From positions 4,310 to 68,309 of the forward strand of contig CAWEYU010000007.1 of the NCBI GenBank assembly GCA_963813405.1: DNA of 64,000 bases, written 5' to 3'. The translations under genes were made by a program, and so were the position numbers. This stretch comes from an uncultured Bacteroidales bacterium. GTDB lineage: Bacteria; Bacteroidota; Bacteroidia; Bacteroidales; VadinHA17. The notes under the pieces were generated by a model that was not told the origin of the DNA, did no database searches, and worked only from the letters and a program-made list of their open reading frames with translations. Shown piece by piece: positions 1,877 through 49,884 of the stretch (position 1 is the stretch's first letter; each line of letters starts with the position of its first letter).

Positions 1877-3169
1877 TTATTTTTTGTTTTTTGTAATAAG
1901 GTACCTTAAGGGGTCTATTATTTTAAACAGCAGCCTCCTGTTCTCAGTGATTATTTCTGCTGTGCCCTGCATATTCTGAGTAAAATCGAGTGGTCTTTTA
2001 TACAGAGTAGTCAATCCCTCAGGCAATTCAATTTCGATTACATATGAATCCACTGAAGGGACAAGCGATATTGTTTTTATTTTGCCACGTATCATCCCAT
2101 ACTCAAGGTACGGGTAACCGCTTAGTTTGATATTAACATCCTGATTCAGCTTTACTTTTCCGGAGCGTTGCATTTTCAGATAGACCCTTCCAATAAAACT
2201 ACCAGGATTAAATGGTACTATTGTAAGAACTGGTTCATCCAGCTTGACCGATTGATTCTCTCTCCAATATTTTGTGAATGTAACTTTTCCCGCGATCGGG
2301 GAAATGAGTAAATAGGTAATTTCCCACATTTTGATCTGGGCTTTTAAATTTCGGAATGATTCCTCAAGAGCTGAGGAGAGTCTCTCAATACCTTCGGAGC
2401 GTTGTAGTAAATATTCTTTTAGTTGCTGCTGACGTCCTGTTTGTTCAATACTTTTCAGGGAAAGCTGAAGTCGGATATTCTGAAGATCCAGCTGCTGTCT
2501 GATAAGGGCCTGCCTTGACTTGTCATACTCGCTCGAGGGAATAGTTTTGTCCGCTTTATAGAGGTCGGAATCACGCCTGAACCGTCTCTTATCGATCTCA
2601 AGGTTTTCGGAATACAGCTTTTCACTTTCACGCAGGCGGTTTATATATGCGTTAGTTCCAATGATTTCATTATTAACAGATTGAATCCTATTGCTGTAAA
2701 TATCATTTGTCAGAAAATTATTGTATTCGGAAAGAGCTTTTCTGAATGAACTGTAATACACCTGGAGTTCACCAAGTTCGGCGAGTTCAGGGACAAAATT
2801 ACCATGCAGTGACAACAGATGTGAAGTTGTATCTGCAAAGAGTTTAAGAGTTTCTATCTCTTTATAGGAAGCAGCCGTTTCCATAACAGCCAGCACCTGA
2901 TCCTTCTCAACCTTACTTTCATTTGAGATTTTGAATTGCTTTATTGATCCATTTATTCTGGAAACGAGTGTCACAGGCGGGTTTTCTGTAGTTATTTCCA
3001 CTGTGGACGGAATAAGATCGGGATACTTTATAAACCAGGCAAAAAGTATAAATAATACAAAAACAATTAAAATAGTGAATGAGCCCCAGCGAACAATTCT
3101 TCCTGGCGGATTTCCCATTATCTCCTCGACAGGATCTGAATATTTTATTTCAGGTCTTCTGATATCCAT
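1877..3169 (-). CDS. HlyD-family secretion adaptor (membrane fusion protein) of a peptide exporter
   Basis: N-terminal TM (FTILIVFVLFILFAWFI), a long coiled-coil middle and a beta-barrel-like C-terminus. Lies 8 bp downstream of the C39 ABC transporter on the same strand. Confidence 0.85.
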   Translation of the reverse strand: MDIRRPEIKYSDPVEEIMGNPPGRIVRWGSFTILIVFVLFILFAWFIKYPDLIPSTVEITTENPPVTLVSRINGSIKQFKISNESKVEKDQVLAVMETAASYKEIETLKLFADTTSHLLSLHGNFVPELAELGELQVYYSSFRKALSEYNNFLTNDIYSNRIQSVNNEIIGTNAYINRLRESEKLYSENLEIDKRRFRRDSDLYKADKTIPSSEYDKSRQALIRQQLDLQNIRLQLSLKSIEQTGRQQQLKEYLLQRSEGIERLSSALEESFRNLKAQIKMWEITYLLISPIAGKVTFTKYWRENQSVKLDEPVLTIVPFNPGSFIGRVYLKMQRSGKVKLNQDVNIKLSGYPYLEYGMIRGKIKTISLVPSVDSYVIEIELPEGLTTLYKRPLDFTQNMQGTAEIITENRRLLFKIIDPLRYLITKNKK

Positions 3170-3177
3170 TCTTTTAT

Positions 3178-5364
3178 TCAGTTTCCAAGTTCAAGTTGGT
3201 TTCTAACAAGATTATAGTAGACTCCTTTTTTTGCAATAAGTGCATCGTGTGTACCAGTTTCAGCTATCCTTCCGGATTCAAGAACGACAATTTTATCAGC
3301 ATCTCTCACAGTGCTGAGCCTATGGGCAACAATTATTGCAGTCTTGCCGGTATAAAAATCTATCAGGTTTTCTGCTATTACCTTTTCATTATTAGCATCC
3401 AGAGAATTTGTTGCTTCATCGAAAATAATAATATCAGGATTTTTGTAAACAACTCTGGCTATCAGAAGTCTTTGTTTCTGTCCTTCGCTCAGACCATGGC
3501 CATTTACACCTATCTTGGTATTGTAACCCAAAGGTAGTGATTCAATAAATCCTCTTACATTTGCAATATCTACAGCCGACAAGAGTCGCTCTTCATCTAT
3601 AGATTCTGAACCAGTTGCAATATTGGCAGCTATTGTATCTTCAAACAGATAGCCATCCTGCATCACTGCACCTACCTTCTCCCTCCATAGCCTCAGGCTA
3701 AGATTTTGCAGATGGGTATCTCCTATTAATATATGCCCGGCTACGGGCTGGTAAAATCCGAGTATCATTTTCAAAAGTGTCGTTTTGCCGCTTCCGCTCA
3801 TTCCAACAATTGCTGTTACTTTGTTTCCTTCTATTACCAGGTCGATATCTTTTAATACAAATGGTGAACGGGGTCCTTCATACTGATAAGAGAGATTATT
3901 AATATAAATGTCCCTTTTTTCAGGCATCTTTTTTACTTTCATTGCTGAATCTGATTCTTCATCCTCCATCAAATGAATTTCTGAAAGCCGGTTCAGGCTG
4001 AATCTTGCATCCTGAGACATCCGGAAGAATGCAATAACCTGACTTACAGGAACATTTAATTGTCCGATAATAAACTGAACAGCCAGCATCATACCAAGAG
4101 TCATCTCGTTGTCGAGGACAGCTTTTGCAGAAGCAATAGTAACCAGAACATTGGTGACCTCATTTATGAATGTAGCTCCTGCGGATTGATACTGCATAAT
4201 AGTAAGTCCCTTGACTCTGAGTCTGAACAGTGATGCCTGAAGATTCTCCCACTCCCATCGTTTATTCAGTTCACTTTGAGTAAGCTTTATCTCCTGCATT
4301 CCGTTCACCATCTGAATGAGTTTGCTGTTTGTTATGGACATTTGTTTGAACCTCTGATGGTCGAGTTGCCCTCTCGACTTCATAAAGAGCGATACCCAGA
4401 CTATATAAAGTATTGATCCGATAATGAAAACGGCAAGGATCTTCAGGCTATAGATTGCCAGAACAATCCCAAAAACAACGAGGTTAAAGAATGAAAACAG
4501 GATGCTCAGAGAAGCTGAGGTCAGAAATTCTTCGATTCTGTTATTGTCATCGATACGCTGAAGAATATCTCCTGTAAGTTTAGTGTCAAAGAATGCAATG
4601 GGAAGTGCCATAAGTTTTTGAAGAAATCCTGACACGATAGCCACATTAACTCTGGTTCCAATATGCAACAGAAGCCATCCTCTAATAAATTCGACTGCCA
4701 ATCTTCCCAAAACCAGAGCCAGCTGAGCGAACAGGATCAGATAGATAAAACCGATATCACTGTTATTGAGCCCTATGTCTATTATAGACTGTGTAAGAAA
4801 GGGTATTATCAGTTGAATCACGCTGCCAAGAAGAAGACCAAGAAGGAGTTGAAGAAGGTACTTCTTATATAAGCGGAAGTATTTCCAAAGGAATCTGAAT
4901 CCTGAATCCCTGTTGACTTCATCTTTATTTTCATAAAAAGCTGGAGTAGGTTCCATAATCAGTACGAGTCCTACCGGCTTACCATCTACAACTGTTCCTG
5001 CCCAATTTTTCATAAACTCTTCCTTGCTGTAACTTGTAAGGCCAAAAGCAGGATCGGCTGCAAATACTTTGTCTTTGGTAATCTTATGTACAACAACAAA
5101 ATGCCTTTGTCGCCAGTGAACAATACAAGGAAGAGGTACATTTTCCTCAAGCTTTTCAAATGGTATTTTGACGCCAATGGTCCGAAATCCAAGTGAATCA
5201 GCAGCTTCACTTAACCCGAGAAACGAGACACCTTCTTTTGTAATATAACATCTTTTGCGCAAGGTCTCAAGGGAAAAGTTTCTTTTGTAAAATCCGGCAA
5301 CCATCTTCAGACATGACGGTCCGCAATCCATTGCATCAGGTTGTTTTACAAACGGGAAGGACAT
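3178..5364 (-). CDS. Peptidase-C39-domain ABC transporter (PCAT; double-glycine leader peptide exporter)
   Basis: N-terminal C39 motif QPDAMDCGPSCLKMVAGFY with downstream HFVVVH..DP. Six-TM ABC core. Walker A GMSGSGKTT, signature LSEGQKQRL, Walker B IIIFDEATNSLD. The ORF track starts at TTG 5379; ATG at 5364 (MSFPFVKQ) is more likely. Confidence 0.9.
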   Translation of the reverse strand: MSFPFVKQPDAMDCGPSCLKMVAGFYKRNFSLETLRKRCYITKEGVSFLGLSEAADSLGFRTIGVKIPFEKLEENVPLPCIVHWRQRHFVVVHKITKDKVFAADPAFGLTSYSKEEFMKNWAGTVVDGKPVGLVLIMEPTPAFYENKDEVNRDSGFRFLWKYFRLYKKYLLQLLLGLLLGSVIQLIIPFLTQSIIDIGLNNSDIGFIYLILFAQLALVLGRLAVEFIRGWLLLHIGTRVNVAIVSGFLQKLMALPIAFFDTKLTGDILQRIDDNNRIEEFLTSASLSILFSFFNLVVFGIVLAIYSLKILAVFIIGSILYIVWVSLFMKSRGQLDHQRFKQMSITNSKLIQMVNGMQEIKLTQSELNKRWEWENLQASLFRLRVKGLTIMQYQSAGATFINEVTNVLVTIASAKAVLDNEMTLGMMLAVQFIIGQLNVPVSQVIAFFRMSQDARFSLNRLSEIHLMEDEESDSAMKVKKMPEKRDIYINNLSYQYEGPRSPFVLKDIDLVIEGNKVTAIVGMSGSGKTTLLKMILGFYQPVAGHILIGDTHLQNLSLRLWREKVGAVMQDGYLFEDTIAANIATGSESIDEERLLSAVDIANVRGFIESLPLGYNTKIGVNGHGLSEGQKQRLLIARVVYKNPDIIIFDEATNSLDANNEKVIAENLIDFYTGKTAIIVAHRLSTVRDADKIVVLESGRIAETGTHDALIAKKGVYYNLVRNQLELGN

Positions 5365-5488
5365 TTTAAGTACTTGCAAATAGAATTAAACAGTAAGTAA
5401 AGATATTTATATTTTGATAATAGGGAAACCACTCTTCATTAAAATCAGCGCTATAAAAGAAAATGAGCACTTTTACTCATGGAAATAC

Positions 5489-5524: not shown

Positions 5525-6091
5525 TTGTTCAAAAAACTTACAGATAAGAGCATTGTTGAGGGAATTCGTCTTCAGGACGATAAAGTTCTCAACTATTTGT
5601 ATGATCATTATTTTCAAACGGTCAAACACCATGTATTACAGAATAGCGGATCGGATGATGACGTATCGGATCTGTTCCAGGATACAATTATTACTTTATA
5701 TCAGCAGATTACTGAAAATAACTTTAATCTTACGTCTGACCTCAAAGGATATTTTTTCGGGATAGCGCGAAATATCTGGAGTTCGAGGTTAAGGCAAAAA
5801 ATGAAGCTTTCAGGTTTAAATGTGGATATTGCGGAAGAGGACGATCCAACCGGGTCGCCTGATGCAGACCTTGAAAAAATTCTCAGCAGGGCATTTCAAA
5901 AGCTTAAACCTGACTCCCAGACTGTATTAACACTCTTTTATGAGGGTCTTTCATATGAAGAAATTGCTGTCAGGATGAATTTAAAAAACGAAACATATGC
6001 AAGGCGGAAAAAATATCTGAGCAAAGAAGCTTTAATTGAATTGATCAAGAAAGATCCTGATTATGAGGAATATCGGCGTTTCCTGAAATAG
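5525..6091 (+). CDS. RNA polymerase sigma-70 family factor (ECF-like, ~188 aa)
   Basis: Region 2-like DDVSDLFQDTIITLYQQI and FFGIARNIW. Region 4 HTH LSYEEIAVRMNLKNETYARRKKYLSKEAL. The track ORF begins at TTG 5414; I prefer TTG 5525 (MFKKLTDKSIVEGIRLQDDK) on length and the promoter box. Confidence 0.8.
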   Translation: MFKKLTDKSIVEGIRLQDDKVLNYLYDHYFQTVKHHVLQNSGSDDDVSDLFQDTIITLYQQITENNFNLTSDLKGYFFGIARNIWSSRLRQKMKLSGLNVDIAEEDDPTGSPDADLEKILSRAFQKLKPDSQTVLTLFYEGLSYEEIAVRMNLKNETYARRKKYLSKEALIELIKKDPDYEEYRRFLK

Positions 6092-9000
6092 ATAAAACCG
6101 CCAGGTATCAAAATTAAGAGGATCACGATGACTAAAAACTTTGTCATCATGCTATAATAAACCGGAGAATCATCACCATATATGACAAGAGTGGACCAGA
6201 AGTAAGGAAAGGATCTAACTGTTCCTGAATTCCTGAGATAGTCGATCCGGGCTTTTCGTAAAGCTTCACTTTTTGAATATCCGTTTTTCAGGTACCGATA
6301 GAAAGACTTTACAATATCGGTTCCTGATTTATCGTCGACTTCCCATAAAGACATAACTACTGATTTGCTTCCGGAGTAGATAAATCCCCTTGCAAGACTA
6401 AGTATCCCTTCTCCCCTTCTCAGATTTCCGACACCAGTATTGCAGGAACTGAGAACAACCATTTTTGCTTTAAGGGAGATGCCATATATTTCAAAGGCGC
6501 TCATACTATTGAGTGAACTGTTACTGTTTAAACCTGAAAAAAATAACCTTGACATGATTGGATTCTGGATATCGATGTATGTATGCATGGCGAGATGAAT
6601 AATATCAAAACTGCCAGCCATTTTTTTATAGTTCGAGTCAGTAGCAGACGAGTCTGTAAATAGGGTTCCACGAGTTATTTCTGAAACATATTCTGCTTCT
6701 TCCCTTGCTGCAGGTAAAGCTTTAAGGATTCTGTTGCTGGCCTGCCTTTCAATTGGAATAGAGTCAAGATCGATCGGTGAATTGTATGAAGGTGAAAACA
6801 CAATTGCACTATTTCTCATAGATTGATTTACTTTTCTATTTTCAGCAAGCAAAGTGGCAGAATATGCATAAGATATGTTGTAATCATTAGTCAGGTAAGG
6901 CAAGGTACTGTAGATAAGGTCGTTATTATTTGTCTCGCCTGTAAGAAAAGTTTCAAATGGCAGATATGAAAGTATATAATCCGGAGAAATGATCAGGTTA
7001 TTCGAAATAAGATACTTTTTTACCGGTTCGATCAGACGGGAATAAAGCTTATAGCCGTAAACCTGATACATTTTGAATTCGCTAAAAGATTTTTCATCGA
7101 GGTCAGGAGATGTCAGGATTTTCCTGAAACCTGCTACTATTTCATTGAATGATGTATCAATTCTCTGTATTATCACCTGGTTGTATTTCCTGTTTGAAAT
7201 AAAAGTGTATAAAAGGGAATCTGATACTATATAACTCAGATAATTTTTATTTCTTCCAATAATCCCAGGTAAGTCATTCATGCCTACCACATTGGAATTA
7301 AATTTTATTGAGTAATAGTCCGGATAGTTCTTTTCAAAAACTCTGATAAGCGAATCTCTGCGCTCAACTGAAGTCCTGATCTGATCTTTCAGAAGACGTA
7401 TTTTTAAGCTATCCGGACTATCCTGGTTTTCTTCCTCAGCAAGTGTGGAACTGAAAGATCCGATGTTCCATTGAAGATCTTTCTCCATGTCTGCAAGTGA
7501 TGCAGGAATGAAATTCTGCATTGCCCTCATTTCTCGTGTTGATGCAAGAAGATTTGCTACCTTACTTTTTTCAGAGTATTTAAATGCTTTCTCAAGATAT
7601 TGTTTATCATTGGTTTTACTGTAGCATTCATTTAAACACATAATTGCATCCATGTATGAATTCCTGTATTTATCTCCCAGCAGAAGTCTGCTTCCCTCCT
7701 CCCCGATGCTTAATCTTATCTTCTCAAGTATTTCAATTATCAATTCAGAGGTTTGTGCAGCTGCTTGTAGAACTTTAATATCACTGGTCTTCCTGTATTC
7801 ACTCCACAAAATCCTGTACTTTGTGACTAGTATTTTTAAGGATCTTCCGTCAGCTTTTAAAGAATCAGGATTCTTGTACGGATAGTCGCTTTCTTTAAGT
7901 ACTTTCCGGGGAAAGAGAAGTGTCTGAATTGAGTCAAGCGCAATACGGTTTTGCCCATTCTGATAAAGTGAAAGTGTGTATCCGAGGATAATATTATCCC
8001 TGTTTTCCTTATCCCATGGATGAGTGTTCAGGTAACTGAAACAATCAAGGTAGATCTTTTTTGCCAGGCTTTCATTAATTCTATATTCCCGCAAATAATC
8101 AGCATAACAGCTTAATGTTTTATAATAATAATGTGGTTCTTTTACCTGAGAAGGTCGTACCTTTTTCAGATAATCTGAAAGAAGCAATTCCCCTTTGTGT
8201 TCAAGAGAATCATTTCCAAGAATAATTGCATAGTTATTTATAATGGTAAAACCCTCTTTTGTGAATTTTCTGCTTAACAGTTTCACTCCTTTTTCATAAT
8301 AAGAATAGGATTTATCCTTTAAACCGAGGAAATGATAAACAGTCCCGAGGTTGTTAAGCACAACAACATAATCGTTATCTTTATTTATTATATTATCATA
8401 ACAAGATTCAGCTTTTTCAAGATAGCTTCTGGCCTGTTCATAATCTGCAAGCCATGTGTAGGCAACTCCCTTAGTTAAATATAAAGCTGCTTTATCTTTT
8501 GCATCAACGGAATCGGGATATTGTTGTGTAATCCTGAGTGCCTGGTCTGCCCACTCCAGTGCTTTTTCATAGTTCCTTATATTTATGTTAATTACTGAAA
8601 GTAATCTGTATCCGGAAATCAGACTGACACTATTATTGCCATAAAAACGTTTGGTATTTTCCAGTGAGGCCCCACCATATCGGAAAGATTGTTCATAGTC
8701 TCCTATTTCAGAGTATCCAAGGCTCAGATTATATAAAGCCCGTGAATAAATGGAATTTGAAACATCCCCCGATAAATTGAATATACTAACTGCTTTTTTC
8801 AGATTTTGAAAAGCCAGATTATAATCTTTGCATTTCAGGTAATATATCCCAATTAAATAATATCCATCGGCCATATCGATAGTCTCTTCTTTGATCCTGT
8901 TTTTAAGATAAGACTCGACACTATCAACAATTTCATGGGCCTCTTTCAACCGATCATCGGATAAAAGTTTACGAAGCCTTGTTCTTGCACTTTTAATTTC

Positions 9001-9186
9001 CTGGCTTTCCGGATAGGCGTTTCCCTGAAAGACAATTTTCGTTTTGGGATACACTTTCCCCATTGAGGGCAATTCAGAATATGCTTTATGGTTAAAAGAG
9101 ATTAATGTACTGAATATCAGATATAATAATAACTTATTTATTCTGAATCGAACTTTCGATAGTCTATTAGCACCTTTTAGCTTCAT
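6061..9186 (-). CDS. TPR-repeat CHAT-domain protein (caspase-like protease fold) with N-terminal signal/anchor and C-terminal TM helix
   Basis: N-terminal hydrophobic segment LLLYLIFSTLISF. Multiple TPR-like repeats span about 300 aa. C-terminal CHAT with His (IIHLAMHTY) and Cys (VVLSSCNTG) dyad. Terminal TM FLVIVILLILIPGGFIYF followed by RKRRY. ATG at 9186 preferred over TTG at 9198. Confidence 0.85.
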   Translation of the reverse strand: MKLKGANRLSKVRFRINKLLLYLIFSTLISFNHKAYSELPSMGKVYPKTKIVFQGNAYPESQEIKSARTRLRKLLSDDRLKEAHEIVDSVESYLKNRIKEETIDMADGYYLIGIYYLKCKDYNLAFQNLKKAVSIFNLSGDVSNSIYSRALYNLSLGYSEIGDYEQSFRYGGASLENTKRFYGNNSVSLISGYRLLSVININIRNYEKALEWADQALRITQQYPDSVDAKDKAALYLTKGVAYTWLADYEQARSYLEKAESCYDNIINKDNDYVVVLNNLGTVYHFLGLKDKSYSYYEKGVKLLSRKFTKEGFTIINNYAIILGNDSLEHKGELLLSDYLKKVRPSQVKEPHYYYKTLSCYADYLREYRINESLAKKIYLDCFSYLNTHPWDKENRDNIILGYTLSLYQNGQNRIALDSIQTLLFPRKVLKESDYPYKNPDSLKADGRSLKILVTKYRILWSEYRKTSDIKVLQAAAQTSELIIEILEKIRLSIGEEGSRLLLGDKYRNSYMDAIMCLNECYSKTNDKQYLEKAFKYSEKSKVANLLASTREMRAMQNFIPASLADMEKDLQWNIGSFSSTLAEEENQDSPDSLKIRLLKDQIRTSVERRDSLIRVFEKNYPDYYSIKFNSNVVGMNDLPGIIGRNKNYLSYIVSDSLLYTFISNRKYNQVIIQRIDTSFNEIVAGFRKILTSPDLDEKSFSEFKMYQVYGYKLYSRLIEPVKKYLISNNLIISPDYILSYLPFETFLTGETNNNDLIYSTLPYLTNDYNISYAYSATLLAENRKVNQSMRNSAIVFSPSYNSPIDLDSIPIERQASNRILKALPAAREEAEYVSEITRGTLFTDSSATDSNYKKMAGSFDIIHLAMHTYIDIQNPIMSRLFFSGLNSNSSLNSMSAFEIYGISLKAKMVVLSSCNTGVGNLRRGEGILSLARGFIYSGSKSVVMSLWEVDDKSGTDIVKSFYRYLKNGYSKSEALRKARIDYLRNSGTVRSFPYFWSTLVIYGDDSPVYYSMMTKFLVIVILLILIPGGFIYFRKRRYSS

Positions 9187-9203
9187 TTTCCTATCCAAAA
9201 TGG

Positions 9204-20038: not shown

Positions 20039-20066
20039 GTGCAAGTTGCAGGTTGCACGTTGCAGG
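20039..20066. repeat. (KTGCANG)x4 heptamer array / hairpin between convergent genes
   Basis: gtgcaag ttgcagg ttgcacg ttgcagg. GTGCAA 20039-20044 pairs with TTGCAC 20053-20058. Starts 7 nt after the NamZ-like stop. Confidence 0.75.
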
Positions 20067-20454: not shown

Positions 20455-20649
20455 AATCAATTCAATTATTAAACAAAAATATTATTTTATATACATATAT
20501 TGTATTGCATTAATTTAATAATTGTTAATATGCAATTTTCTTGTAATTATCGATTGATATCTGATTAACTTAAGTTGCTAGTTTTAAAATTTATTATAAT
20601 TTGGACAATGACAATTTCTTCCCTTCAATATTTCTTAACCCATCCCCAA

Positions 20650-20733
20650 CCCTTCCCTTAAGCATAAGGGAAGGGAGATCTAATTAATAATCATTGGTTT
20701 ACACCCCCTTCCCTTAACCTTAAGGGAAGGGGG
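20650..20733. repeat. Two direct copies of a CCCTTCCCTTAAG...CTTAAGGGAAGGG hairpin
   Basis: H1 is cccttccctta/agca/taagggaaggg (20650-20675). H2 is cccccttcccttaa/cc/ttaagggaaggggg (20704-20733). Flanking cccatcccc and ggggatgggg are also complementary. Confidence 0.85.
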
Positions 20734-20823
20734 ATGGGGAGATGGGTTCAGAAGATATCTAAGGAGAATGCAATTTATTTGAACTAAAATATTTAATTGC
20801 AACTTGAGTTAATTAATTGCTTT

Positions 20824-27800: not shown

Positions 27801-27885
27801 TTCTACATTTCTTACTCTTTTTGTCGTTCCGGCTATCTATTCTTTCATTTCCAGTGAAACTAAACCGAAAGCTGATGAAGCTTAG
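24850..27885 (+). CDS. Efflux RND transporter permease (AcrB/HAE1 family)
   Basis: 1011 aa, 12-TM architecture. SINRPVLATV N-terminus and VVDDAIVVMENI motif. Confidence 0.95.
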   Translation: MSLASVSINRPVLATVFAIVILLFGVVGVTFLGIREFPSVDPPIISVRTEYPGANSDVIETQITEPLEQSINGIQGIRSLTSVSRQGGSEITVEFQLSVDMETAANDTRDKVSQAMRMLPRDCDPPVVAKADADASPILQLTIESDKRSLLELSEIAELTFKEQLQTISGVSAVSIFGQKRYAMRLWLDPVKLAGYQMTPLDVRNAIARENVELPSGSIEGNTTQLTIRTLGLMSTPKEFDDLILKQNGNQIVRFKDIGRAELGPEDIRGILKRDGVPMVSDVIIPQPGSNQIDIVDEVYKRLEYIKKDLPDDVKVKIAFDNTQYIRKSIKEVKDTIYIAFALVVIIIYFFLRSWRATLIPILVIPVSLIGAFFIMYLAGYSINVLTLLAIVLAIGIVVDDAIVVMENIYVKVENGSPPLQAGLEGSKEIYFAIIATTITLIAVFFPIVFLQGITGRLFREFAIVMAGAIGISAFLALSLTPMVSTKMLRRETTHSWFYRKTDKFFNRLNEGYRRMLETFLNHRNVTFLILIAAFALIFLLWKSIPAEMAPLEDRSQVTINTTSQEGATYEFNLDYIDDIAKTINDLVPERTGVISMIRGGGGNARVTLVSPKERNRSQQEIADQLGTVLRKKTKARAMVMQQSTFGGRRAGMPIQYVLQATTIDKLRKILPAYMAKVMDDPMFQMADVNLKFTKPELRIHIDRDKANALGVSTQNIGQTLQLALSGQRFGYFFMNGKQYQILGDLKRGDRNKPLDLKSLYVRNTSGDMIQFDNLVTLTEETAPPQLSRYNRFVSATISAGLAPGRTISQGLDEMDKISKETLDDSFRTALAGDSKDFKESSSSLMFAFILALILIFLVLAAQFESFKDPFIVMMTVPLALTGALLFMWYFNITMNIFSQIGIIMLIGLVTKNGILIVEFANQRKHAGMAKMDAIKYAAASRFRPILMTSLATILGIMPLALGLGEGAQSRISMGIAVVGGMFFSTFLTLFVVPAIYSFISSETKPKADEA

Positions 27886-29191
27886 ATATATATGCTTGTT
27901 TCTGTTATTGTCCCTTTTTAAACAAGGTGGTTCTCAGGTGGTCTACTCTCTTAAGGATTGCATAGGAATAGGGCTTCAAAGAAATTATTCTATACTTATT
28001 GCCCGAAATAATGAAATTATCTCAAAGAATAATTACACAATTGGAAATGCCGGTTATCTTCCGTCACTTGGTCTGACAGGCAGGTACAATGGATCCGTTA
28101 CAAATACGACCCAGAATTTCGATACCACAGGACCATATATTACCAACGGTACACAGTCAAATTCCGGCAATGCAAATATATCTCTCGGCTGGACAATTTT
28201 TGACGGGTTCAGCGTTCAGACTACATACAAAAAACTGAATGAGCTGAAACTGCTTGGTGAGCTCAATACCCGTCAGACAATTGAGAATTATATTTCGACC
28301 TTGCTGGCTGTTTATTATGGATATATTCAGCAGGTTCAGCTTGTTAATAACGAAAAATATGCAGTTACACTTTCAAAAGAGCGATTGAGAATAGATGAAG
28401 AGAGGTATTTACTTGGTTCCAATTCTAAACTGCAGGTTCTTCAATCCAGAGTATACTTTAATGCAGACAGCTCTAGTCTTTCACGTCAGATTGAGGTGCT
28501 TAGGGCAACTCAGATAAGGCTGAATGAGCTAATGGCAGTGGAAGACATGGGCGCTCAGTTCTTATTGAAGGATACATCAATAATGGTAAAACCGGATCTC
28601 ATTTATGAAAAGCTTTTTGAAGAAACACTTAAATCAAACACCGGTTTACTGATTGCTTCAAAAAACAAAACTGTCTCAAACTACGATTATAAACTGGCTG
28701 TTTCTGCTACTTATCCATACCTCGATTTTTCGGCTGGTTACAACTATACACTCAGCACTCTTTCAACAAGTTTGTATAAAAACCAGTTGACTAACGGACC
28801 AAATTATGGTTTGATATTGGGTGTTAACATATTTAACGGATTTAACACCAGAAGGCAAATTGCAAATTCTGCTATCAATAAAAAATCCACTGAGCTAAAA
28901 TACCTGGAAACAGAACAGGGTGTGAAGGCAGACCTCATAACTATTTACAATGCATATAGCAACAATTTGAGGCTTATAACCCTGCAGGAACAGAATTTTG
29001 AAACTGCGACAGAGAATCTTTCGATAGCGATGGAAAAATACAAACTCGGTAATCTTTCCGGACTAGACCTTCGTGATGTTCAGAAAAGCCTTCTGGATGC
29101 CAAAGAGAGTCTTCTTTCAGTGCAGTATCAGGCTAAACTTGCTGAAATATCCTTATTGCAGATCGCAGGACGGATAATGGAATATTACTAG
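27875..29191 (+). CDS. TolC-family outer membrane efflux protein
   Basis: ATG 27875 (MKLRYICLFLLLSL signal). Duplicated TolC-like helical/beta repeats. Overlaps the permease stop by 11 nt. Confidence 0.85.
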   Translation: MKLRYICLFLLLSLFKQGGSQVVYSLKDCIGIGLQRNYSILIARNNEIISKNNYTIGNAGYLPSLGLTGRYNGSVTNTTQNFDTTGPYITNGTQSNSGNANISLGWTIFDGFSVQTTYKKLNELKLLGELNTRQTIENYISTLLAVYYGYIQQVQLVNNEKYAVTLSKERLRIDEERYLLGSNSKLQVLQSRVYFNADSSSLSRQIEVLRATQIRLNELMAVEDMGAQFLLKDTSIMVKPDLIYEKLFEETLKSNTGLLIASKNKTVSNYDYKLAVSATYPYLDFSAGYNYTLSTLSTSLYKNQLTNGPNYGLILGVNIFNGFNTRRQIANSAINKKSTELKYLETEQGVKADLITIYNAYSNNLRLITLQEQNFETATENLSIAMEKYKLGNLSGLDLRDVQKSLLDAKESLLSVQYQAKLAEISLLQIAGRIMEYY

Positions 29192-29238
29192 GTGCAGGGT
29201 GCAGGGTGCGGTGCAGGGTGCAAGGTGCTGGGTACTGG
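29191..29238. repeat. (GGTGCAG)-type degenerate heptamer array, ~7 units
   Basis: ggtgcag ggtgcag ggtgcg gtgcag ggtgcaa ggtgctg ggtactg, starting at the TolC stop codon. Same KTGCANG family as 20039-20066. Confidence 0.8.
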
Positions 29239-44409: not shown

Positions 44410-45301
44410 TTATAGTTTGTCATTATGAACTTTACTTTTCAGGTAATATGAAATTGTCTTTTGTAATCCTTCACTTGTTGAGAAAGCGGGCTTAAAATTC
44501 AGCAGTTTCCTGGTTTTGGAGTTATCGAGGTAAAAGGAGTTGTACAAACGGTCAAAAACAGGAGGCATCAAAGCAATACCTGTCCTGACCAAAATGTCAG
44601 GTAACCTGATCAGAGTTATTCTTTTTATGAAGATATGTTGACAAAAGAATTACCAGATCATTTGTGGACAGACCCTCATCATCCATGGCAATAAATATTC
44701 CTGAAGCTTTGATTTCAATAATTCTGTCAATGAAACCAACCAGGTTTTCTACATAAGTATAGTGCCTGTTATTTCCCACTTTCTTAAAAGGCAGTATTGG
44801 AAATCTCTCTATCAGTTTTATTAATTTCAAAATGTTTGCGGTAACACCTGGACCATAAACAATTGGTGTTCTGATTATTGAGACAGTAAAATTCGGATCT
44901 TCAAGCTTTTTCAGACCCAATTCAGCCTCGTATTTACTCAACCCGTAAGAATCTTCGGGAAAGCATGGTGAATCCTCGTTCCAAAGGTCGATTCCCGGAT
45001 TAAATTTACCATAGACTTTCATGGTACTCAGAAAGATAAACTGTCTGACACCTGCTGCTTTTGCCTGTTTAGCTACATTTATGGACAGATCTCTGTTGAC
45101 TGAAAAATATTCTGCATCATGATTTTTTTTCGATCTGTGTACTATTGCTGCCAAATGAAGAATTATGTCATATTTGCTGAAATCTATATCTTCGGGATTG
45201 AGTTCTATAAGAGACACCTCCTCCACTTCAGCAAATTTTGAAAATCTCATAAAATTTTTTCCGATGAAGCTATTGGCACCGGTGATCAGGATTTTGGGCA
45301 T
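44410..45301 (-). pseudogene. NAD-dependent epimerase/dehydratase, interrupted by a +1 frameshift near 44615-44630
   Basis: N-terminal ORF (ILITGANSFIGKN...YGLSKYEAE) stops at 44597. The shifted frame reads ITLIRLPDILVRTGIALMPPVFDRLYNSFYLDNSKTRKLLNFKP, which is the expected C-terminus. The junction is at the A-rich cataaaaagaataac. Confidence 0.8.
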
Positions 45302-45331
45302 TAGATAAATCAAAGTTTTGGATCCTAAAAT

Positions 45332-46615: not shown

Positions 46616-47572
46616 TCAGAAGATAAGATCTATTATAAAATTCCCCTCCTGGTGGGGATCAGGGGGGATGTTTGATCTTCTAATGGATCTATTCCCAAAA
46701 AATTCAAAAATTTTGACAAAGTATTTTGAATAAATATTCAGATAATTGGTCTTTATTCCATTTTCTTTGCATGCCCTGGCAATTTCCCTGTTCAGGGTGA
46801 AATTACTAAGAATTGATTTATTGCTTACTCCGCCTGTTCTCATAGAGACGAATGGCATCTCCAGGTATTTGTAACTAATTTGATGAATTAGAAAAAACCT
46901 TAACAACAGTTCATAATCCGCAGCAATTTCATAATCTGTTTTATAGTATCCCAGTTTCTCAAATAATTTTCTTTTAACATAAAATGTAGGATGTGCAGGC
47001 ATAAATCCAAATTTAAATTTATTGGGATTAAAATATTTCGAGGAGTAATACCTCACAATCTTTGAGGGCTTCATGGAATCAAAAAACTCTACATCTCCAT
47101 AAACAGCATCTATATGATTTTTCTGAAATGCACTTGCAACAGTTTTGATTACATCACTATCATAAAAAAAATCGTCGGAATTCAGTATTCCGACAATGTC
47201 GCCTGTTGATAATAGAATGCCTTTGTTAATAGCGTCAATTTCCTCAGCCTGAAATGCTTGTACAACTTTTGAAATCACATCATTATCATAAAAAAAATCA
47301 TCGGCATTCAGAATTCCGATGATATCCCCGGTAGCAAGTTTTATGCCTTTGTTAATTGCATCATAAATTCCTTTATCCGGTTCGGAAATGAACTTTGAAA
47401 TCCGGGAGCCGTAAGATTTTATTAGTTCAACTGTACCATCGGTTGAGGAGCCATCGACGATTATATACTCGATATTGGAATATGATTGAGATAAAACAGA
47501 TTTTACAGTATCAGAAATAGTTCCTAAACTATTAAATGAGACTGTTACAATAGATACTTTTAGGTTTCCCAT
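46616..47572 (-). CDS. Glycosyltransferase family 2 with an internal 42-aa tandem duplication
   Basis: VSIVTVSFN, IIVDGSSTDGT, then two copies of DAINKGI.L.TGDI.GILN.DDFFYD.DVI. The C-terminal 20 aa run through a GC-rich hairpin element. Confidence 0.85.
   Translation of the reverse strand: MGNLKVSIVTVSFNSLGTISDTVKSVLSQSYSNIEYIIVDGSSTDGTVELIKSYGSRISKFISEPDKGIYDAINKGIKLATGDIIGILNADDFFYDNDVISKVVQAFQAEEIDAINKGILLSTGDIVGILNSDDFFYDSDVIKTVASAFQKNHIDAVYGDVEFFDSMKPSKIVRYYSSKYFNPNKFKFGFMPAHPTFYVKRKLFEKLGYYKTDYEIAADYELLLRFFLIHQISYKYLEMPFVSMRTGGVSNKSILSNFTLNREIARACKENGIKTNYLNIYSKYFVKIFEFFGNRSIRRSNIPPDPHQEGNFIIDLIF
47111..47362 (-). repeat. In-frame tandem duplication (2 x 126 nt) inside the GT2 gene
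   Basis: aa 71-112 (DAINKGIKLATGDIIGILNADDFFYDNDVISKVVQAFQAEEI) versus aa 113-154 (DAINKGILLSTGDIVGILNSDDFFYDSDVIKTVASAFQKNHI). Confidence 0.9.
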
Positions 47573-47600
47573 TTAATATTTAATATTTAATATTTAAATT
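47573..47600. repeat. (TTAATAT)x3-4 tandem repeat abutting the GT2 start codon
   Basis: Three perfect 7-mers at 47573-47593, then degenerate ttaaatt. Confidence 0.8.
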
Positions 47601-47623
47601 TAATTCCTTGAACTTAAGGTAAT

Positions 47624-47703
47624 CCATTCTTCCATTCTTCCATTCTTCCATTCTTCCATTCTTCCATTCTTCCATTCTTCCATTCTTCCATTCTTCTATT
47701 CTT
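47624..47703. repeat. Octanucleotide microsatellite (CCATTCTT)x9 plus one imperfect unit
   Basis: Counted directly. Lies between the stop of 47707-49884 (3 nt away) and the GT2 start (51 nt away). Reads (AAGAATGG)n on the coding strand. Confidence 0.95.
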
Positions 47704-47706
47704 TCA

Positions 47707-49884
47707 TCACTCCACTCCCTCATTTTTCCTTAGACCTGATTTTAGTAGAGCCTTTTCTTCTTTTATGTGGATAGAATGAATGAAGAAGGGGAGAATTGAA
47801 AAAAATCCAAATATTGGTGGATCAAACGGGCTACCGCCACTAAAAAATGTAAAGAAGAAAGTTATGAGAAAGAAAATGAATAAGAGTGGGTATTCTTTAA
47901 TATACCTGATATAATAATAGAACACTTTAAATAGGAAAAATAAATAAATAACCAACCCTACTATGCCTGAATACAGCAGAATTGATAGAAATGGATTATG
48001 AGGATAATCTATTCTGGTTTTAGTTCCAAAAAAATAGTATCCATACCAGTTTAAGAAAGAGAATCCGCCACCAAATATTTTTTGAGGCCAACTATATTCT
48101 TTATTAAATATTTCAAATGAAAATTTCCACCGGGCTATCCTGTCTTCCCCAAAATCATCCAATGACTTTTTAACAAACAGATTACTTTTGTATGGGTGAT
48201 AAATAGTATCTTCTGAAACAATTTTTCGAATCCAGTTCCTGAGTGGATCAGTATCAGCAGAATTGTTAATTTGACTAAAAAGTTCACTGATTGATAGTTT
48301 AAGAAAACTTGCTTTGTATATATTCTTTACAACTAGTGATTCATAGTTCATTTTTAGCTTTGAATCGTTATATTTTATTCCCTTTATAAATATTTTTTTG
48401 TAATTGTTACTTTGTATCAAGGAATTGGATATGTTGCTGCCATTTGATACTATATTAAATTCTGGAAATGCAAAAATCACATAACCTTTAAGATTAGAGA
48501 AGTCTTCCACTCCACCTTTATTCATATATAAATATATTATAATATCTCCTTGAGAACAGCTTATTGGTAGTATAAGTTTCTGCCAGCATCCTTTATTCTT
48601 TAAATCATAAAACTTATCAGGATTGCCTGTTAATGAGCCCTCTGCACGGATAGCTACGGCATCACCATCGAAATTATCAGTAACATAACAATAAACTGAA
48701 GCTAAAAGAGAATCACCTTTTTTTACACTCTCTCGTTTAAGCGACAAGAAATAATATGAATGTGAAGGAGATGCAAAACCTAAACAACTTTTATCAAATA
48801 AGTAACCTTTAGATCCAGCCGGGACAATTTCTACGTTTTTGCCAGATAAACTTTTGACAATTTTGTAGTTTCCGGTACCACTCCAGACTTCTGGGTCTTT
48901 AGGATCAAATACTGGTTTCCAAATCTTGGAATACAAAATCTCTTCATTAAGGTCTTTATCAAGAAAATGAAAATAACGAAAAAATGTTTCGGTTATTAAA
49001 TTTTTAGTATAAGGAATATTATTTACCCCTATACTTTCCAAAACACTATTTTTAAAATAAACTGAAGTGTTAAGAATCAGAAAAATAAGTAGAATTACAA
49101 GAATAGAAAAAGATAACAAGTAATATTTAGATATCTTACTTAACTGTTTGACTCTTAAATTATTACTAAACAAACTCCATAACTGAATTGCCAGAATCAT
49201 AATGAATAGTAAGAGGAATAAGAATACTCCTCTCTTTGATCCTGAAATCAAAAAACTGATAGAAAAAATTATTAATAAGATATTATATATTAATATTTTA
49301 AGTCTCGATATTTTCTGAGAAAAAGTATATAAAATACCTATTAATCCAAAGAATACCGGTATCAGAACGAAATTACTATCAACTACTGCCCTGTCCTTAT
49401 TAACATACAGGTCATTAAATGCTTGAGAATAAGATGATAAATAAAAATAAGAATAAATTCTTTGAACTGAAATTAAAAAAGCGAATAGTACAGCAAGATT
49501 CAAAAAAGATTGATAAAAAAGTATGCAGTCTTTTGATTCATGAATAAAAAGCTTAAGAACTAATATTATTGATAACAGAATAATAATATTTACAATATCC
49601 TTGACAATCATTAAATAAATTTTATTGGAAAAAAAACAAGCTAATGTCAGGTATAAAAAAAGAACTAAAACAACGGGCAAGATATTTTTTAAATCTTTTA
49701 ATCCTGAGAAGATTCTATCTCTATACATTACTAAGATGTATATTGTTATAAGAATATATATTATCAGGAAAGGATATTTAAAAAATGGAACCGCAGTATG
49801 CGTCAGATATAAACTTAGCCATAAAGTGACTGAAAAAAGTTCACCATTCTTTCTATTATAAGAGTTTAAAATCATATTTCTCAT
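47707..49884 (-). CDS. Large Wzy/O-antigen-ligase-like membrane protein with a ~220-aa extracytoplasmic insert
   Basis: About 9 N-terminal TM helices. A central soluble region (aa ~300-520) looks beta-rich. The C-terminal motif YPHNPFLSILLYSGIVGLVIY is Wzy_C-like. Extremely AT-rich gene. Confidence 0.5.
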   Translation of the reverse strand: MRNMILNSYNRKNGELFSVTLWLSLYLTHTAVPFFKYPFLIIYILITIYILVMYRDRIFSGLKDLKNILPVVLVLFLYLTLACFFSNKIYLMIVKDIVNIIILLSIILVLKLFIHESKDCILFYQSFLNLAVLFAFLISVQRIYSYFYLSSYSQAFNDLYVNKDRAVVDSNFVLIPVFFGLIGILYTFSQKISRLKILIYNILLIIFSISFLISGSKRGVFLFLLLFIMILAIQLWSLFSNNLRVKQLSKISKYYLLSFSILVILLIFLILNTSVYFKNSVLESIGVNNIPYTKNLITETFFRYFHFLDKDLNEEILYSKIWKPVFDPKDPEVWSGTGNYKIVKSLSGKNVEIVPAGSKGYLFDKSCLGFASPSHSYYFLSLKRESVKKGDSLLASVYCYVTDNFDGDAVAIRAEGSLTGNPDKFYDLKNKGCWQKLILPISCSQGDIIIYLYMNKGGVEDFSNLKGYVIFAFPEFNIVSNGSNISNSLIQSNNYKKIFIKGIKYNDSKLKMNYESLVVKNIYKASFLKLSISELFSQINNSADTDPLRNWIRKIVSEDTIYHPYKSNLFVKKSLDDFGEDRIARWKFSFEIFNKEYSWPQKIFGGGFSFLNWYGYYFFGTKTRIDYPHNPFLSILLYSGIVGLVIYLFFLFKVFYYYIRYIKEYPLLFIFFLITFFFTFFSGGSPFDPPIFGFFSILPFFIHSIHIKEEKALLKSGLRKNEGVE

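Follow-up and report, generated by a model that had tools for sequence, protein, structure and literature searches.

Introduction

The question raised by this locus is whether a long octanucleotide repeat, found between two glycan genes of an uncultured Bacteroidales bacterium, is a slipped-strand phase-variation switch, as a first-pass annotation of the sequence had proposed, or a repeat of another kind. Phase variation in Bacteroidales is known by DNA inversion, and to our knowledge only invertible promoters and shufflons are established as sources of surface variation in Bacteroidota. Bacterial repeats with units of 6–9 nt are poorly studied, and we know of no function for them. The contingency loci of Haemophilus, Neisseria and Campylobacter carry tetranucleotide or homopolymer repeats at LOS, capsule and glycosyltransferase genes, and these classical repeats lie inside a reading frame or between core promoter elements, where they toggle expression ON and OFF (PMC11868660). 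All coordinates below refer to the whole stretch of DNA that was analysed, 64 kb in length, hereafter called the window.

Results and Discussion

The octamer tract and its immediate surroundings

The tandem repeat lies at 47624..47703 and is read here on the minus (coding) strand, where an imperfect unit, AAGAATAG (47696-47703), is followed by nine perfect AAGAATGG units (47624-47695); on the plus strand the same stretch reads as nine perfect copies of CCATTCTT (47624-47695) and then CTATTCTT (47696-47703). TRF reported it at 47623-47707 with a period of 8, 10.6 copies, 96% matches and a score of 156, and it is by far the strongest tandem repeat of the window. A two-unit probe with up to 2 mismatches gave 9 overlapping matches, all of them within the tract and none elsewhere in the window that would indicate a second copy, while 100 dinucleotide-preserving shuffles gave a mean of 0.17 matches and a maximum of 1. 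In a second assembly of the same strain (ENA ERZ25039554, contig_56649, denoted L200) the tract is identical, with 1 imperfect and 9 perfect units, and since this contig is independent, an assembly artefact can be dismissed. L200 and the window are 99.65% identical, with nearly all differences located in the error-rich last 320 nt of L200. Apart from this same strain, exact-protein look-ups for the locus found only a Logan contig, which breaks off at the tract; contig breaks at this position are explained by short k-mers and low coverage. The annotated count of nine perfect units and one imperfect 8-bp unit is therefore borne out by direct reading, by TRF and by the second assembly.

The tract begins 3 nt after the stop of the upstream 725-aa ORF and ends 51 nt before the start of the downstream gene, and on both distances the ORF coordinates agree with the annotation. 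Its sense-strand RNA is free of C (A41 G29 U10 C0). In none of the six frames do the perfect units contain a stop, and each has one ATG, as had been said of the whole array, but the imperfect first unit carries a TAG. Upstream of it, at 47704..47735 (minus strand), direct reading shows degenerate, repeat-derived units (AGGAAAAA TGAGGGAG TGGAGTGA TGAAAGAA...), and the 725-aa ORF has its last 9 codons and its stop within five such units, which reach to ~47735; in a BLAST comparison of the window with the octamer family loci described below, the similarity reaches ~47743. On the other side, the AT-rich spacer of 51 nt (47573..47623, minus strand; TRF and direct reading) contains a heptamer repeat, (TAAATAT)n, at 47571-47604 (period 7, 5.0 copies, 92% in TRF), which abuts the ATG of the downstream gene, as had been noticed before, and supplies TAA stops in all three frames.

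Both flanking genes are co-oriented on the minus strand. The downstream one (46616..47572) encodes a family-2 glycosyltransferase (GT2; Pfam PF00535 Glycos_transf_2, E 1.7e-33), for which the NCBIfam matches are partial only. The upstream 725-aa ORF (47707..49884, with its TGA stop at 47709-47707) has a deviant GC content of ~28% and encodes a membrane protein whose label, Wzy-like, is backed solely by a sub-threshold Wzy_C match (23.6 bits vs. a cutoff of 31.7) and is used here as a putative name; its homologues adjoin GT2 homologues in metagenome contigs. The neighbouring minus-strand genes form a polysaccharide biosynthesis locus, which includes a flippase-like gene, a WecA-like GT4, an epimerase, two DegT-type aminotransferases, two GT2 genes, a methyltransferase, an initiating sugar transferase and acyl-chain enzymes. 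Between these two glycan genes stands a long and pure repeat with a unit that is not a multiple of 3, and like the repeats of contingency loci it is, by its length and purity, capable of slipped-strand mispairing. Elsewhere in the window, the nearest named homologues of an RND pump are proteins of 'Bacteroidales bacterium' MAGs, with ~90% identity. This agrees with a Bacteroidales host, as does the scarcity of SD-like motifs given below.

Reading frames and expression signals

The anatomy of the reading frames does not allow a classical switch. Neither coding sequence includes any part of the tract, every one of the three frames that leave it runs into TAA codons of the downstream spacer, and one TAA is in frame directly before the GT2 ATG, and because of this last codon an N-terminal fusion to GT2 is impossible at any unit number. 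A frameshift ON/OFF switch is thereby ruled out. It had also been suggested that the unit number would alter the spacing of promoter or coupling signals. The Bacteroidota -7 box (TAnnTTTG) is absent from the spacer (47573-47706) and sigma-70-like matches in the tract region occur at the level of shuffles, and a promoter-spacing switch was rejected on these grounds. No terminator-like hairpin was found in the spacer 47573-47706 either, and a terminator role was likewise discarded. An SD-mimic or ribosome-binding array is unlikely here, with SD-like motifs found in only 4 of the 51 genes of the window, whose gene leaders are AT-rich.

Compared with contingency loci, the tract is similar in having a unit that is not a multiple of 3 and in its place beside a glycosyltransferase gene, and it differs in lying outside both coding sequences, in the lack of a detected promoter and in its environmental Bacteroidales host. 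It is located neither within a reading frame nor at detected core promoter elements, the places where contingency repeats toggle expression. The switch proposed in the first-pass annotation therefore survives in part: a long, pure repeat with a unit that is not a multiple of 3 does stand between glycan genes, but no ON/OFF mechanism is visible.

What had been said of a short upstream ORF did hold. A 47-aa ORF (47580..47723, minus strand) opens at an ATG at 47723 and reads through the tract (MREWSDERIEEWKNGRM...), and the distance from its stop to the downstream GT2 ATG takes one of three values (7, 27 or 41 nt) with the unit number mod 3, although, since every unit has its own ATG, all three frames are populated whatever the unit number. 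As for the ORF itself, it is unlikely to be a gene: searching with its peptide of 47 aa gave 67 repeat-peptide matches, none of which had the same termini or was an allele of the locus, and we rejected it as a real gene, regarding it as a translation of the repeat with no homologue sharing its termini.

The simplest reading is that the tract would be transcribed within a polycistronic mRNA. Its RNA is predicted to be unstructured (MFE -7.9 kcal/mol for 171 nt, z = +1.19). With G-quadruplexes enabled in ViennaRNA, none was predicted for the tract, whose unit has only GG tracts with 6-nt loops, and a G-quadruplex reading was dropped on this basis. No Rfam family matches the tract of the window or 18 octamer family loci, and, with the tract RNA being unstructured, a structured RNA or a member of a known RNA family was set aside as well.

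The locus in relatives

In a metagenome scan with GT2, the nearest relatives had at most 64% amino-acid identity, and no allele of the locus was found among them. The adjacency of Wzy-like and GT2 genes is conserved among these relatives (tblastn, metagenome contigs). In three contigs (L125, L126 and L130) the spacer between the two genes measures ~25 nt and has no tract, while in two others (L132 and L133) it measures 70-120 nt, again with no octamer tract, L132 having only a rudimentary AATAATGG-like stretch. As the octamer tract is absent from these orthologous pairs, it is an addition specific to one lineage, and the gene pair functions without it.

The octamer across genomes

Scanning GTDB, with one genome per species, for exact (AAGAATGG)x3 gave more than 119 stretches from at least 66 species-representative genomes, nearly all uncultured. 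Many of the carriers are Poribacteria and many are Bacteroidota, and Verrucomicrobiota, Kiritimatiellae, Planctomycetota, Cyanobacteriota, Chloroflexota and others are also represented. The loci have a GC content of 32-67%, while the unit itself has 37.5%, and some genomes contain at least 9 loci. Most of the family tracts listed have ~3.5-5 perfect units, surrounded by variants of the form TGGAAKNN, and only ~5 of the 122 listed reach 8.6-11 units, so that the tract of the window, with nine perfect units among its 10, far exceeds a typical listed member in length and purity. Its length and purity suggest a recent or continuing expansion, possibly under selection. The listed octamer loci are also rich in tandem repeats with 7-9-bp units, with 39 per 100 kb (~28 when the ascertained tracts are subtracted), in comparison with 6.2 in unselected control contigs and 0.9 in shuffles. 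The pattern of the target octamer had zero matches in viral contigs, which makes these uninformative as a frequency control.

The ORF calls in the family loci are heuristic, and the positional signature was taken from the low-GC subset of the listed loci, where simple ORF calls are reliable. Most of the tracts listed in this subset are intergenic, the downstream gene runs in the direction of the G-rich strand in 24 cases and against it in 8, and for tracts within 60 nt after a stop the sense strand is G-rich in 15 cases and C-rich in 1; the tract starts between -7 and +10 nt from the stop in 9 of 19.

The functions of the neighbours give no sign of a preference. Among the matches listed, 142 flanking ORFs match 246 Pfam families, with no family in more than 3 ORFs and no glycosyltransferase among the leading families, and the listed tracts of at least 6 units adjoin ArgG (argininosuccinate synthase), KsgA, NAD synthase, adenine deaminase, Hsp33, GlgE, ABC transporters and similar genes, mostly housekeeping. 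An association of the octamer family with glycan genes was rejected on this spread of Pfam families and these housekeeping neighbours. Since the same octamer tracts flank unrelated, mostly housekeeping genes, the position of our tract beside a glycan gene is not diagnostic, and a more general caution follows, namely that a repeat beside a glycosyltransferase gene does not by itself make a contingency locus.

Repeat turnover after other stop codons

The window has two further repeats after stop codons, both with the G-rich strand in sense: (GGTGCAG)x6.4 at 29191-29233, whose start coincides with the final base of the TAG stop codon in a TolC-like OEP gene, and (TGCAGGT)x3.9 at 20040-20066, which begins 8 nt after the stop of NamZ. 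Both OEP and NamZ are real, housekeeping genes. The post-OEP site has no repeat in a relative with a 95% identical pump (L203), and in a second species it carries (AAGGTT)x2 in one sample (L204) and (AAGGTT)x3 in five others (L205-L209). A comparable case is found between aconitase and NUDIX genes, where two metagenome contigs (L201 and L202), with flanks that differ at 2 of ~440 positions (>99.5% identical), have GGAAGAAT-type tracts that are one 8-bp unit and 4 substitutions apart. From these variations it follows that the post-stop G-rich repeats of the lineage and of the family are born, lost and resized quickly, and the resized ones (post-OEP and aconitase/NUDIX) are at loci without a link to surface variation.

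Comparison with described repeats

The closest described counterpart is the set of G-rich intergenic repeats with 6-9-nt units in Xanthomonas and Nostoc, the GGGNATC heptamers (GGGAATC / GGGGA(C/T)T) of Rehm et al. 2015 (PMC4692102). In these repeats the G-rich strand is on the coding strand, 0-50 bp from a stop codon or overlapping it; they are preferentially located between aligned ORFs, nearer to the 5' than to the 3' neighbour, and their neighbours belong to all functional classes, for which reason phase variation was judged unlikely by the authors; extensive length variation between relatives and inverted arrangements occur, and the repeats form G4 structures and prefer four units (PMC4692102). 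The octamer tract agrees with them in a unit of more than 6 nt, in strand asymmetry and in lying between aligned ORFs, 3 nt after a stop; the tract and its family are also alike in being nearer to the 5' neighbour, in length variation and in inverted arrangements, and the listed family loci are similarly not tied to a particular gene function. The differences are that the octamer has only GG tracts and no predicted G-quadruplex, and that our tract has 10 units and not four; most of the family tracts listed, though, have ~3.5-4 units. The Bacteroidales host, and the sharing of one octamer by many phyla, also set it apart. Unit type and asymmetry, position and the lack of functional bias are therefore common to both, while G-quadruplex formation and the four-unit preference are not, and as the positional signature matches that of the repeats of Rehm et al., we assign the tract to this class of G-rich post-stop repeats. 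The tract itself is a new instance of the little-studied G-rich repeats with 6-9-nt units beside stop codons.

A second comparison can be made with the TAACTGA heptamers, intergenic direct repeats of Beggiatoaceae, Cyanobacteria and several Bacteroidetes described by MacGregor 2015 (PMC4679880). These are not shared by close relatives in which the neighbouring genes are the same, form long tracts at which contigs break, and are mostly placed immediately upstream of start codons in forward orientation (PMC4679880). Like them and the cyanobacterial STRR heptamers, the octamer is a short intergenic direct repeat common to distant phyla, and, as with TAACTGA, the tract is missing in relatives with the same neighbours and contigs break in it. 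Unlike TAACTGA, it hugs the upstream stop, and the unit sequences are unrelated; the (TAAATAT)n repeat beside the GT2 ATG is closer to the TAACTGA position than the octamer tract is. The octamer as a word appeared in our literature search only in irrelevant papers, and no description of the octamer family across phyla was found there.

Proposed origin of the tract

Taking these observations together, we favour, with somewhat better than even confidence, the explanation that the tract is an expanded, slippage-prone and tolerated member of the class, variable in length (VNTR), and not an ON/OFF switch. According to this explanation, G-rich, C-poor repeats with 7-8-nt units would accumulate in spacers just after stops with the G-rich strand in sense, and the present one would have arisen in the spacer of a conserved, co-oriented Wzy-like to GT2 pair, which is short and repeat-free in relatives. 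It probably grows and shrinks by replication slippage. It would be tolerated, being placed outside both coding sequences, causing no stop codon problem and presumably adding neither a terminator nor a promoter, while the AT-rich initiation region beside the GT2 ATG would stay intact.

Orientation may also be important. The RNA on which Rho loads is long, unstructured, rich in C and poor in G, and in the opposite orientation the repeat, (CCAUUCUU)n, would look like such a loading (rut) site directly behind the stop codon. In the C-free orientation, judging from the biology of Rho, it should not load Rho and should be neutral for downstream expression. To hypothesize, the bias in favour of the G-rich sense strand could exist because the C-rich orientation would invite Rho. 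Slippage at the tract, its co-transcription with the two genes and the avoidance of Rho are all things that we infer from sequence.

A tract that does no more than vary in length would be an ordinary polymorphic repeat and a useful strain marker. If its unit number matters, the effect would be a graded or three-state tuning of GT2 translation, which could be exerted through the length of the spacer or through the place where ribosomes of the upstream ORF terminate, and, if true, it would represent repeat-based, and not inversion-based, surface variation in Bacteroidota. Several observations count against a quiet repeat: the tract is unusually long and pure, a surface-polysaccharide operon is the classic setting of contingency loci, and the cycling of the ORF stop (7/27/41 nt), together with an adjacent duplex partner (see below), could support regulation that depends on unit number.

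Alternative explanations

The main rival, which we regard as possible but on balance unlikely, is that the tract is a slipped-strand modulator of GT2 expression, working by phase variation or as a graded 'rheostat'. By a first route, the unit number would shift the termination of the upstream ORF with respect to the GT2 ATG, with termination-reinitiation coupling, of period 3, in an organism that makes no use of SD sequences. The three positions of the ORF stop speak for this route, as does the AT-rich heptamer repeat with its stops in all frames right at the GT2 ATG, but the ATG in every unit would keep all three frames populated at any unit number. By a second route, the unit number would affect a hairpin formed at long range by the tract with the pyrimidine-rich end of the upstream coding sequence. 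There is a precedent for this in the (ATCTTTC)n repeat of Haemophilus influenzae hmw1A/hmw2A, which acts from the 5' UTR via a hairpin and RNase III, and for which the promoter, the hairpin, RNase III cleavage and an inverse relation of length and expression have been demonstrated, the control being graded (PMC12721329).

The pyrimidine-rich segment in question, at the 3' end of the coding sequence (47768..47803, minus strand), encodes a conserved ILPFFIHSIH motif and is positioned ~65 nt upstream of the octamer tract. Its 33-nt arms are 73-76% complementary to the tract in at least 6 registers, and it is the best predicted RNA duplex partner, with -27.1 kcal/mol and rank 1 of 3233 windows of the two-gene mRNA (mean -7.7, sd 4.7). 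The tract resembles the hmw repeat in being intergenic and presumably transcribed, with a unit of more than 6 nt, upstream of a surface-related gene and near a predicted pairing partner. It is unlike the hmw repeat in that it is placed mid-operon and not in a mapped 5' UTR, and in that its fold is not significant: the whole region folds no better than shuffles (z = -0.52). The order of the arms also speaks against the hairpin, since a C-rich arm followed by the G-rich tract, as in the window, occurs in 0 of the 122 family tracts listed, which have inverted partners downstream in 31 cases and upstream in 0 (background 1.4%).

Beyond the two routes, a modulator is favoured by the nine perfect units, by the glycan operon and by the change of unit number between near-identical strains seen in the family (L201/L202). 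It is opposed by the impossibility of a frame fusion and the spacer without a promoter box, by the same unit count in a second assembly of the same strain, by the orthologous gene pairs that work without a tract, and by the lack of an association of the listed family loci with surface genes.

A broader possibility, which we find doubtful, is that GGAAGAAT-type tracts and hairpins together make up a cross-phylum class acting after stop codons at the RNA level, of which the window copy would be a hypervariable member that tunes GT2. Such a class would have been spread or kept independently of genome GC, with a strict polarity of G-arm then C-arm, and might function in ribosome recapture or re-initiation, in protection from Rho or in mRNA processing after termination. 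Whatever its explanation, an octamer that is found in dozens of distant, mostly uncultured genomes, hugging stop codons and often in hairpins of fixed polarity, is a pattern that deserves attention.

Also improbable, in our estimation, is a sequence-specific cis element, for which GGAAGAAT would have been selected across phyla and which would work independently of the exact unit number, for example, as a multivalent RNA- or DNA-binding platform, a ribosome 'standby' landing pad or an anti-polarity spacer between cistrons. The recurrence of one 37.5%-GC unit in genomes of such different GC content, several times per genome, argues for an element of this kind, and so do the near-identical hairpins, (TGGAAGAA)3-loop-(AACCTTCC)3, at non-homologous loci of different Poribacteria species (L051/L103/L106), and a composite octamer element at two loci of one genome (L093/L119). 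The strict polarity of the arms among the listed tracts, the bias in strand and in proximity to stop codons, and the unstructured, purine-rich RNA can be added to these. Against such an element, no Rfam family matches, the octamer is unmentioned in the relevant literature found by our search, SD-like sequences are too rare here for the role of an SD mimic, relatives have no tracts at the same sites, and the tract of the window has no hairpin partner of the type typical of the dispersed elements.

We consider it very improbable that the tract marks a junction, of recombination or of modules, in the polysaccharide locus, with repeat-mediated swapping of the downstream glycan genes: extra genes are indeed inserted exactly between Wzy-like and GT2 homologues (L122, L123, L131 and L128/129), the upstream gene is of deviant GC, and a role in gene rearrangement has been proposed for intergenic heptamer repeats in Bacteroidetes (PMC4679880), but the window has a single copy of the tract, no rearranged variant was found, and the contig breaks at the tract have the technical explanation given above.

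As a minor observation on the distribution of such repeats, a 9-unit copy of (AAGAAUGG)n is present in Vibrio jasicida, a cultured carrier, according to protein P0020, which was encountered in the peptide search.

Inverted Partners and Dispersed Copies of the Octamer

Among the listed GTDB species-representative loci with at least three units of the octamer (L001–L119), an inverted partner, taken as TTCC at an 8-nt period (background 1.4%), lies within 150 nt downstream of 31 of the 122 (AAGAATGG)n tracts, while an upstream partner was found for none of the 122. Since partners are downstream in 31 cases and upstream in 0, the G-rich arm always stands 5' of the C-rich arm in (AAGAATGG)n hairpins, on either strand.

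An element of about 60 nt, (TGGAAGAA)3TGG-ATGCCYCC-(AACCTTCC)3, is nearly identical in three Poribacteria species (L051, L103 and L106), and the flanks of the L106 copy are unrelated; another, composite element is roughly 100 nt long, joins the octamer tract to ACGCATT heptamers, and is present at two unrelated loci of a single genome (L093 and L119). Both cases suggest dispersed, REP-like elements. In two further Poribacteria loci, each from a different species (L046 and L101), the octamer tract (3.6 units) is perfectly conserved together with its inverted partner, within flanks that are approx. 95% identical, and here the tract appears to be an in-frame insertion within a conserved coding region.

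Length Difference and an Implied Copy in Vibrio

Contigs of one species from two JGI metagenomes carry the octamer tract with aconitase and NUDIX genes on either side (L201, 1501–1725; L202, 1501–1686), and these tracts are one 8-bp unit and four substitutions apart, compared with 2 mismatched positions in about 440 nt of flank. The 47-aa peptide read through the window's octamer tract matched P0020, a 42-aa hypothetical protein of Vibrio jasicida in NCBI (MEEWKNGRMEEWKNGRMEEWKNGR...), whose sequence points to the same kind of tract, with 9 units, in a cultured isolate; this isolate is a possible experimental handle.

Other Repeats and Genes in the Window

On the forward strand, a heptamer repeat, (AAGTCGG/AAGTCAG)x4.7 (1550–1582), is followed after 22 nt by its inverted counterpart, (CTTCTGA)x2.9 (1605–1624), and the two form one hairpin made from tandem repeats (1550–1624); AAGTCAG-type tracts were also found in three of the listed GTDB loci. 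A TolC-like OEP gene (27821–29191) ends in TAG, and the final base of this stop codon is where the G-rich heptamer tract (GGTGCAG)x6.4 (29191–29233, forward strand) starts; a C6/G6 hairpin lies on the 3' side of the tract. At the same site, one relative has no repeat (L203), and a second species has (AAGGTT)x2 in L204 and (AAGGTT)x3 in L205–L209. The unit family of the tract at 29191 is seen again in (TGCAGGT)x3.9 (20040–20066, forward strand), which begins 8 nt past the NamZ stop and fills the spacer of the convergent NamZ and GroES-like genes. In the divergent spacer 5' of the GroES-like gene are two palindromic CCCTTCCCTTAAG...CTTAAGGGAAGGG hairpins (20637–20746, forward strand), bordered by AACCCATCCCC and GGGGATGGGG repeats inverted relative to each other.

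Within 44410–45313 (reverse strand) of the glycan locus, the NAD-dependent epimerase ORF is short, at 238 aa with a TTG start, and is followed in a different frame by a 60-aa ORF (44410–44592); together they may be a frameshifted gene or a pseudogene. Bearing no relation to the octamer tract, a 1045-aa TPR and CHAT-domain protein is encoded at 6061–9198 (reverse strand), and its gene is adjoined by those for a C39-peptidase ABC exporter and an HlyD-like protein (1877–5379).
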